A stretch of DNA of 4,151 nt. Origin: Escherichia coli. Lineage in GTDB: Bacteria; Pseudomonadota; Gammaproteobacteria; Enterobacterales; Enterobacteriaceae. The notes below the pieces were generated by a model. That model was given only the letters and a program-made list of their open reading frames with translations, did not search any database and was not told where the DNA came from. Location of the stretch: assembly GCF_003334785.1 (NCBI RefSeq), contig NZ_QOWV01000048.1. One strand, 5' to 3'. Positions 1,593-1,800 of this stretch are shown here, piece after piece. A program made the position numbers and the translations under genes. How positions within the stretch are numbered: the first letter of the stretch is position 1; the number at the start of each line of letters is the position of its first letter.

Positions 1593-1800
1593 ACTAAAAC
1601 GGCCTCAGGGCGTTTCTGACGGGAAACCGGTAAAACAGGCAACAAACCACCCGAAAACCCGCCAGAAACGCGCAGGCTCTGTTTTTACGGCATGCATGAG
1701 TATGCACGCAAGTGCATAGCGCGAAAATTCACGCCATTCAGACAGGGTAAGTCCTGTTTCCGGCGTTCTTCCTATCCGAAAACGGTGAACGGGGACGCAA
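1593..1800 (-). other. Putative cer accessory region (PepA/ArgR side of the core), extent uncertain
   Basis: cer-type sites with an 8-bp central region need about 180 bp of accessory sequence on the XerC side. A TGCAT-containing palindrome (1692-1717) and TGAAT half-boxes (about 1724-1740, minus strand) sit 110-160 bp from the core. Not verified by alignment. Confidence 0.35.

Follow-up and report, generated by a model that had tools for sequence, protein, structure and literature searches.

Which function, if any, is served by the GC-rich DNA that lies beside the Xer recombination core of a small Escherichia coli plasmid? The preliminary description of this locus had proposed, from the letters alone, a non-coding accessory region of the cer kind. 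We analyzed the window, the whole stretch of 4,151 nucleotides that contains this DNA. Bases 1-76 recur at 4076-4151, so the window is a 4075-bp circle, a ColE1-type E. coli plasmid read slightly past its start. A 421-bp query covering 1540-1960 was 100% identical to plasmid RCS83_pI (4074 bp) of E. coli ECOR10, and related sequence was found in more than 5000 plasmid records. An Rfam search of the window returned RNAI at 172-272 on the plus strand (85.5 bits) and nothing besides; with RNAI on the plus strand, RNAII and the ColE1-type origin are read on the minus strand. Because no Rfam model recognises ColE1's own cer region, this search carries no weight on the presence of Rcd in the window. 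Aligned with ColE1, the origin and cer segments keep the orientation to each other that they have there, and the Xer site points in the same direction as RNAII, an orientation relative to the origin that has been reported for all ColE1-like plasmids (PMC2831885). The features discussed below are collected in the Table.

Table. Positions in the window of the Xer site, of the putative elements of its accessory arm and of neighbouring genes.
Feature	Position	Strand	Basis or remark
XerD-binding arm, TTATGTTAAAT	1563-1573	minus	core pattern match
8-bp central region, TTAAAATG (inferred crossover point)	1574-1581	minus	TTAA side cer-type, AAAATG side Shigella wzz plasmid
XerC-binding arm, GGTGCGTACAA	1582-1592	minus	identical to ColE1 cer (11/11); 8/11 against mwr
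Accessory sequences, mwr-type, ~180 bp	1593-1771	minus	89-94% identity to pJHCMW1 mwr
Segment homologous to the ColE1 Rcd-coding region	1591-1676	minus	covariance model
Long hairpin, equivalent to the ColE1 Rcd body	1610-1671	minus	arms 1671-1658 and 1623-1610
Phased T-tracts, ARG box to core	1624-1668	minus	helical spacing
Position equivalent to ColE1 Pcer, degraded -10	1681-1707	minus	-35 GTGCAT 1707-1702, 15-bp spacer, -10 AAAAAC 1686-1681
Putative ArgR-binding ARG box, cgTGCATactcATGCAtg	1691-1708	minus	column for column with the ColE1 TGCATaggtATTCA element and CloDF13
Second palindrome, ATGCAC-TTGC-GTGCAT, overlapping the ARG box	1702-1717	minus	TGCAT half-site common to both
Two TGAAT pentamers, direct repeats, in the presumed PepA-contacting distal part	1727-1740	minus	sequence
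wzz(fepE) gene	595-1506	minus	
Helix-turn-helix gene, overlapping rop	2301-2702	minus	
rop	2702-2893	minus	

In a pattern search, the core GGTGCGTACAA-TTAAAATG-TTATGTTAAAT was found on the minus strand, running from 1592 to 1563, and 200 shuffled sequences yielded no match; DNA from 1593 onward is therefore on the XerC side. The GC fraction reaches 0.54 in 1601-1800, compared with 0.265-0.29 in 1301-1600, in agreement with the description of a GC-rich stretch on that side. Across 17 sites of the family the XerD arm is invariant or nearly so, and its sequence is the one that dif of E. coli has in this arm. Arms of the mwr type are joined to at least 7 different cores, and one of them, on a 218-kb Klebsiella plasmid (L024), has a core identical to that of ColE1. 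The window equals L024 and a further relative, L004, through GGTGCGTACAATTAA. From AAAATG onward it equals a 3.2-kb Shigella flexneri wzz(fepE) plasmid (L019), which we take to be pHS-2-like, over the XerD arm and more than 100 bp of the DNA that follows it. This identity continues into the wzz module, and window 1-1482 is 99% identical to L019; unlike the window, however, L019 has GGTGCGCGCAA as its XerC arm, 7 bp in its central region and an accessory arm of unrelated sequence. Since the match is cer-type up to TTAA and follows L019 from AAAATG, the switch falls inside the 8-bp central region, which is where Xer exchanges strands. Judged by these matches, the core is a hybrid between a cer-type core and that of the Shigella wzz plasmid. 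The junction suggests that two plasmids once crossed over within their Xer cores, and it could also arise by homologous recombination. No more than 17 plasmid records contain the core and flank with TTAAAATG at 99% identity or better. Hybrid sites sometimes perform poorly as substrates, and this is a point against the reading of the locus as a working site that we prefer below.

To place the arm, the reverse complement of the region was aligned with members of the family, including ColE1, which is in our plasmid collection as L002 with its cer core at 3909-3938. Pairwise comparison (bl2seq) gave 89.8% identity over 264 bp to mwr of pJHCMW1 (E 2e-99), 72.7% over 165 bp to CloDF13 parB (E 1e-19) and 76.8% over 95 bp to ColE1 cer (E 1e-16). 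Alignment of the reverse complement to ColE1 cer and CloDF13 parB was among the checks named for the proposal of a cer accessory region, and it came out positive; the absence of any such alignment in the family, which was to count against the proposal, was not observed. Membership in the cer family was thereby borne out; ColE1 cer is not the closest relative, as mwr is closer. The 17-site alignment contains a block from the ARG box to the core that is almost free of gaps. In this alignment the arm is 89% identical to mwr in its outer part and 94% identical from the ARG box to the core, and the core itself only 73%. The match to ColE1 cer is almost gapless between the core and the ARG-box position, and ends there.

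The outer limit of the site can be read from how other plasmids carry it. Distant relatives match only from 1563 to ~1720. In large Klebsiella IncF plasmids the shared block is exactly 1563-1771, while 1778-1830 is found alone in other plasmids, so the site extends from 1563 to ~1771. The interval 1593-1800 first given for the region is thus ~30 bp too long at its outer end. A length of about 180 bp has been reported for the accessory region, and cer and mwr have been described as highly homologous sites that both require ArgR and PepA (PMC2699498). The distal part, 1716-1771, is provisionally assigned to the arm solely through its homology to mwr, because PepA has no usable sequence consensus.

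Within the arm, the core palindrome TGCATgagtATGCA lies at 1693-1706, the 1 match found against 0.18 expected with 1 mismatch allowed. In the alignment this TGCAT-N4-ATGCA palindrome falls at the position of the ColE1 ARG box, and ColE1, CloDF13 and 11 other loci each contain a single instance of the ARG-box pattern. The centre of the box is 107 bp from the XerC arm, and the distance is 106-108 bp in 16 of the 17 sites. Compared with TGAAT/ATTCA, the half-sites match at 8/10 positions in the window, 9/10 in ColE1, 8/10 in CloDF13 and 7/10 in mwr. Against the ARG-box consensus, TNTGAATWWWWATTCANW, the palindrome scores 10/16 and has a GC-containing centre, ACTC, making it a weak match; this score is not distinctive, being equalled or bettered by 227 of the ~8100 18-mers of the plasmid. 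By position and homology, and not by score, the palindrome would be the single ARG box (TGCATactcATGCA) about 100 bp from the core. The earlier suggestion that TGCATgagtATGCA is an ARG-related element is accordingly upheld by its place in the family alignment. The weak consensus match (10/16), like the rare central region TTAAAATG, points against the reading that we favour. TGCATgagtATGCA is followed by cgcaa and then by GTGCAT at 1712-1717, the outer half of the second palindrome; this extra ATKCA half-site is present in 12 of the 17 family sites and absent from ColE1.

Two further elements of the arm were considered. Between the ARG box and the core, runs of T are centred at 1667, 1655.5, 1645, 1633.5 and 1625, with spacings of 11.5, 10.5, 11.5 and 8.5 bp. 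Their periodicity statistic is only modest (R 0.6-0.73); phased A-T tracts have been described for sites of the cer family (PMC2831885). On the distal side, ATTCA, which reads TGAAT on the minus strand, occurs at 1727-1731 and 1736-1740. These TGAAT half-boxes had also been put forward as ARG/PepA-related, a suggestion that the alignment does not bear out: their conservation is confined to arms of the mwr type, and they correspond to no element common to the whole family. The pair was tried as a second ARG box and rejected, its members being direct and not inverted repeats with a GC-rich spacer, unconserved outside the mwr-type subgroup.

Homologous to functional sites, with the architecture and spacing of the family and with no gene of its own, the DNA from 1593 to ~1771 very probably serves a plasmid multimer-resolution (Xer) site of the cer/mwr family as its accessory arm; the core of this site, at 1563-1592, runs from XerC to XerD on the minus strand. 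The features of the cer family found here are the core, a homologous arm of ~180 bp, a single putative ARG box, phased tracts and the orientation relative to the origin. Binding of ArgR and PepA and recombination at the site are inferred from analogy with cer and mwr. On that analogy, the single ARG box would be bound by host ArgR and the DNA flanking it by host PepA. The two arms of a dimer, which are direct repeats, would wrap around ArgR and PepA, aided by the phased T-tracts, and such an interwrapped synapse would form only within one molecule. XerC would then exchange a single pair of core strands, giving a Holliday junction that the cell would resolve into two monomers. A synapse built by ArgR and PepA and a Holliday junction made by XerC and resolved by the cell are the published mechanism (PMC2699498). 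The plasmid thus most likely uses the site to turn dimers back into monomers.

Two other explanations bear on whether the region is an accessory arm at all, or still a working one. The region might instead encode a protein, through a 108-aa ORF on the minus strand (1605-1931), an 85-aa ORF on the plus strand (1692-1949) or both. These, with a 45-aa ORF on the plus strand (1582-1719), are its only long ORFs, and they overlap on opposite strands. Open frames of 85-124 codons are indeed present, and a few records annotate a 'hypothetical protein' here; yet long open frames are expected in DNA of 54% GC, and almost none of the thousands of matching records annotates a gene, the PLSDB gene tables from which this count comes being incomplete. 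None of the three ORFs had a match in NCBIfam or Pfam. When substitutions against three close relatives were sorted by codon position, the 108-aa ORF gave 17/16/13, 19/11/9 and 28/24/25, with no excess at third positions. The 85-aa ORF gave 16/19/20, 9/7/18 and 31/26/34, a slight third-position excess appearing in a single comparison (L004, 9/7/18) and no consistent one across the three. Indels of 1 nt and 5 nt break both frames in L003 and in mwr, and the 108-aa frame only in L004, against which the 85-aa ORF has no indel; the open frames of the relatives vary in phase and length. We therefore rejected the coding reading, which we regard as hardly credible for lack of family matches, for lack of a consistent codon-position bias and for the indels in relatives. 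The first judgement of these overlapping ORFs as implausible was sound.

It is also conceivable, but improbable in our estimate, that the site is an inactive relic, the scar of a past recombination between plasmids, and no longer resolves dimers. The hybrid core with its rare central region and the weak ARG-box match are what such a scar would offer, and clear relics do occur in the family: L012 retains an arm without an XerCD core, and L005 has a 13-bp deletion that leaves 94 bp between box and core. The plasmid also tolerates decay, as the neighbouring wzz gene contains a nonsense codon. However, each Xer arm of the window is identical to one that works elsewhere, the box-to-core spacing is the canonical 107 bp, and the arm is closely similar to that of functional mwr while free of the ARG-box defect of mwr. 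Additionally, the plasmid family has been maintained, with identities of 99% or more, in many E. coli isolates. A functional accessory arm of a resolution site remains the explanation that we prefer.

The arm contains a further structure, a long hairpin between the ARG box and the core. A checkpoint RNA like Rcd of ColE1 had been suggested for this region; a hairpin on the correct strand is present, whereas the -10 element of a ColE1-type Pcer is missing. In ColE1, Rcd is a transcript of ~70 nt that is induced in dimers and stimulates tryptophanase and indole production (PMC4393325). The window segment 1591-1676 folds with a minimum free energy of -35.2 kcal/mol (z -3.59), compared with -40.7 kcal/mol (z -5.27) for ColE1. 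The consensus hairpin has 14+2 pairs, and 7 of these 16 show compensatory changes across the family. In the alignment 96.2% of cells were paired, against at most 65% in slid controls, and the covariation score was 0.435 against 0.195 in shuffles, 0 of 500 shuffles reaching 0.435. The mirror structure on the opposite strand was 87.3% paired with a covariation of 0.267. The opposite strand pairs less because G.U pairs turn into C.A mismatches, an asymmetry that suggests selection for an RNA transcribed in the direction of the core. With a covariance model for which the 12 non-mwr-type sites of the family alone were used, the window scored 93.8 bits (E ~1e-25) on its minus strand and 25.6 bits on its plus strand, although plain DNA homology supplies much of this score. 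A CCGUUUUAG tail like that of ColE1 is present as well.

The promoter tells a different story from the hairpin. Upstream of the ColE1 hairpin, a hexamer scan found a sole good promoter candidate, TTGCAT-15 bp-TAAAAT. The spacer of Pcer is published as 15 bp (PMC5935869), and our assignment of the Pcer hexamers as TTGCAT-15-TAAAAT is consistent with it; a search of the literature did not return the hexamer sequences. At the -10 position, TAAAAT or a near variant (TACAAT, CAGAAT) occurs in 12/12 non-mwr-type sites. The window and 11/11 mwr-type arms examined read AAAAAC there. Upstream of the window hairpin, the hexamer scan gave no alternative -10 with T1, A2 and T6; the best alternative promoter, TTGCGT-18-TAAAAA, matches at 7/12 positions and is without the final T of the -10. 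A promoter and terminator scan of 1500-2150 found nothing on the minus strand, within spacers of 16-18 bp only and so blind to the 15-bp Pcer type. The window thus has one part of the Rcd/Pcer module, a stem-loop on the strand read towards the core, and lacks the other, a promoter overlapping the ARG box. At the level of sequence, the RNA body is conserved and the ColE1-type Pcer promoter is not.

How the hairpin is to be read depends on which of these observations is given more weight. The arm may additionally encode a working checkpoint RNA of the Rcd kind, with transcription on the minus strand from ~1676 towards the core and expression in dimers, where it would delay cell division as in ColE1; we consider this possible while leaning against it. 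The stable fold, the compensatory changes, the advantage of the minus strand in both pairing and covariance-model score, and the ColE1-like tail all speak for it, and the direction matches that of RNAII (PMC2831885). The replaced -10 hexamer, the poor quality of the best alternative and the empty promoter scan speak against it. So do the stem changes within the mwr-type subgroup, which are mixed, two keeping a wobble pair and three being disruptive (11 sequences with little variation), and a literature search that gave no discussion of Rcd for pJHCMW1. Alternatively, the hairpin could act as DNA and not as an Rcd-like RNA, being a symmetric protein-binding site, a cruciform or an insulator of transcription before wzz. 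It is located in DNA that PepA is expected to contact, and wzz follows directly downstream on the same strand; the missing Pcer -10 would also fit. But the hairpin arms vary by lineage while their complementarity is kept (ColE1 GATCGCGGCAG/CTGCCGTGATC against GTTTCTGGCGGG/CCCGTCAGAAAC in the window), unlike what is expected for recognition by one constant host protein. The strand asymmetry based on G.U pairs favours RNA, and a terminator-like site was not detected. We therefore judge a role of the hairpin at the DNA level to be unlikely.

Among named systems, the closest relative is mwr of pJHCMW1 from Klebsiella pneumoniae, whose arm is 89-94% identical to that of the window. The two share the ACTC centre of the ARG box, GTAAAAAC at the position of the ColE1 -10, and the hairpin; mwr is reported to need XerCD, ArgR and PepA (PMC2699498). 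They differ in the core, which is GGTGCACGCAA-CAGATG-TTATGGTAAAT with a 6-bp central region in mwr and GGTGCGTACAA-TTAAAATG-TTATGTTAAAT with 8 bp in the window, and in the last ~12 bp before the XerC arm (CCGTTTTAG against GCCTCTCAGG). The left half of the ARG box is TGCAT in the window and CGCAT in mwr. As a strict member of the mwr type the window would have to share its core and its box as well as its arm, and it shares only the arm: the core is 73% identical, with an XerC arm matching at 8/11 and 8 instead of 6 bp between the arms, and the sub-optimal CGCAT box is replaced by one with TGCAT (8/10 against 7/10).

These differences are of consequence, as the osmolarity-dependent inefficiency of mwr has been attributed to its ARG box and its core, the part of the core responsible being probably the central region (PMC2699498). 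We presume CGCAT to be the exact defect of the mwr box. Because neither its ARG box nor its core is that of mwr, the hybrid site is predicted to resolve dimers as cer does, independent of osmolarity.

ColE1 cer resembles the window in its identical XerC arm, its 8-bp central region and an XerD arm matching at 10/11. Both have a single ARG box at the same distance from the core, phased T-tracts, a homologous hairpin and the same orientation to the origin. In contrast, identity from the ARG box to the core is 67%, and beyond the box it is 38%, with no detectable similarity. The central region is TTAAGGGA in ColE1 cer and TTAAAATG in the window, and the TTGCAT-15-TAAAAT promoter candidate of ColE1 is absent from the window. 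With respect to ColE1 Rcd, which is transcribed from Pcer, the window has a homologous hairpin on the same strand and at the same position, with compensatory changes, while the -10 hexamer is not conserved. CloDF13 parB is similar over 165 bp (72.7%) and has identical ARG-box half-sites (TGCAT...ATGCA, 8/10). Unlike the window, however, it has the XerC arm GGTACCGATAA and a 6-bp central region, keeps TAAAAT, and carries a second hairpin in place of the U-run.

The element is therefore of an ordinary and well-understood kind, in a hybrid form that is undescribed. Its identification provides a stability determinant for a common 4-kb E. coli plasmid family in which it is unannotated in public records; the practical value of this is modest. 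The Xer core appears as a seam between plasmid modules, at which an mwr-type arm meets an origin-wzz module that Shigella also has, and the natural combination of an mwr arm with a cer-like core is predicted to be without both known handicaps of mwr. More tentatively, and with considerable doubt on our part, the mwr lineage as a whole (thousands of Klebsiella and E. coli plasmids) may have kept the Rcd hairpin, by compensatory changes with a strand bias, while losing the ColE1 -10, so that it would either express an Rcd-like RNA from another promoter under different regulation (such as TTGCGT-18-TAAAAA) or by read-through, or give the hairpin a role outside the dimer checkpoint; separately, and with the same doubt, the core of the window may be the natural product of Xer strand exchange between two different plasmids, with the exchange preserved inside the central region. 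Loss of the Pcer -10 with retention of the hairpin across the mwr-type lineage would thus pose a small, testable question on how general the Rcd checkpoint is.

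Two junction classes occur ahead of the XerC arm in the alignment of cer-family sites (columns 244–256). The U-run junction (...CGTTTTAG) goes with central regions of 7–8 bp, including those of ColE1 and the window. Where the central region is 6 bp long, most sites form a second short hairpin and lack the U-run: mwr (the Xer site of the Klebsiella pneumoniae plasmid pJHCMW1), CloDF13, and the plasmid loci L003, L008, L011, L020 and L023. The exception is locus L016, which carries the U-run form despite its 6-bp central region. The U-run is also missing from several sites with a 7-bp central region (L007, L014).

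Among the relatives, a 244-kb Enterobacter asburiae plasmid (L012) has a cer-family accessory arm at locus ~140–330, with the ARG box, TAAAAT and the Rcd-like hairpin, which scores 71.5 bits with the covariance model of the hairpin segment (R1). No recognisable XerC/XerD core was found beyond this arm, and from its sequence the locus appears to be a relic Xer site. In the mwr-type arm of the Klebsiella IncF plasmid L005 (locus 246–318), 13 bp covering the tip of the hairpin are deleted, which shortens the distance between the ARG box and XerC from 107 to 94 bp. A sister IncF plasmid, L024, has a full-length arm, and its core is identical to that of ColE1.

An imperfect 26-nt inverted repeat, centred on the palindrome ACGCAATTTATTGCGT, lies just beyond the Xer site of the window (see table). 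The equivalent of window 1778–1830 likewise adjoins mwr in pJHCMW1, and this segment is found alone in other small plasmids at 91–100% identity (plasmid-collection matches H87–H90). Because it occurs both alone and beside mwr, the segment seems to be a module of its own that is not part of the Xer site.

Features of the window and their coordinates
Feature	Position	Remark
Junction ahead of XerC arm	1593–1605	
Imperfect inverted repeat	1776–1829	26 nt
Central palindrome	1795–1810	
GAGTCGT-type motif cluster	1900–2110	
17-bp inverted repeat	1947–1963 / 1999–2015	
wzz(fepE)	373–1506	minus strand
In-frame stop codon in wzz(fepE)	595–597	
Helix-turn-helix gene	2301–2702	
rop + helix-turn-helix gene	2301–2893	one-base overlap at 2702
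Segment homologous to ColE1 1053–1530	3535–3991	75% identity
ColE1-type oriT/nic-like sequence	~3545–3605	by eye

The O-antigen chain-length gene wzz(fepE) is divided by a single stop codon into a 303-aa ORF, which matches positions 3–298 of the 368 in the NCBIfam Wzz(fepE) profile, and a 68-aa tail containing the second membrane helix. The 99%-identical Shigella flexneri plasmid L019 carries an uninterrupted copy of this gene. For the record matching the window, the PLSDB gene table lists no wzz gene.

Within the segment homologous to ColE1, a ColE1-type oriT/nic-like sequence was recognised by eye. MOB-suite types the plasmid as 'mobilizable' although it lacks mob genes, which would be explained by this sequence.

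The ATG start of the helix-turn-helix gene (2702–2700) meets the rop stop codon, which ends at 2702. When aligned to ColE1 and CloDF13, the rop segment runs in the orientation opposite to that of the origin segments, so rop appears to be inverted compared with these two plasmids.

GAGTCGT-type motifs are densely clustered near the helix-turn-helix gene. Four exact copies are present where 0.36 are expected, and none of 200 shuffles contained as many. A perfect 17-bp inverted repeat flanks an A-rich 35-bp spacer. The helix-turn-helix protein resembles a plasmid replication DNA-binding protein (E 6e-15, under the curated cut-off), and the stretch may be a binding array for this adjacent protein.
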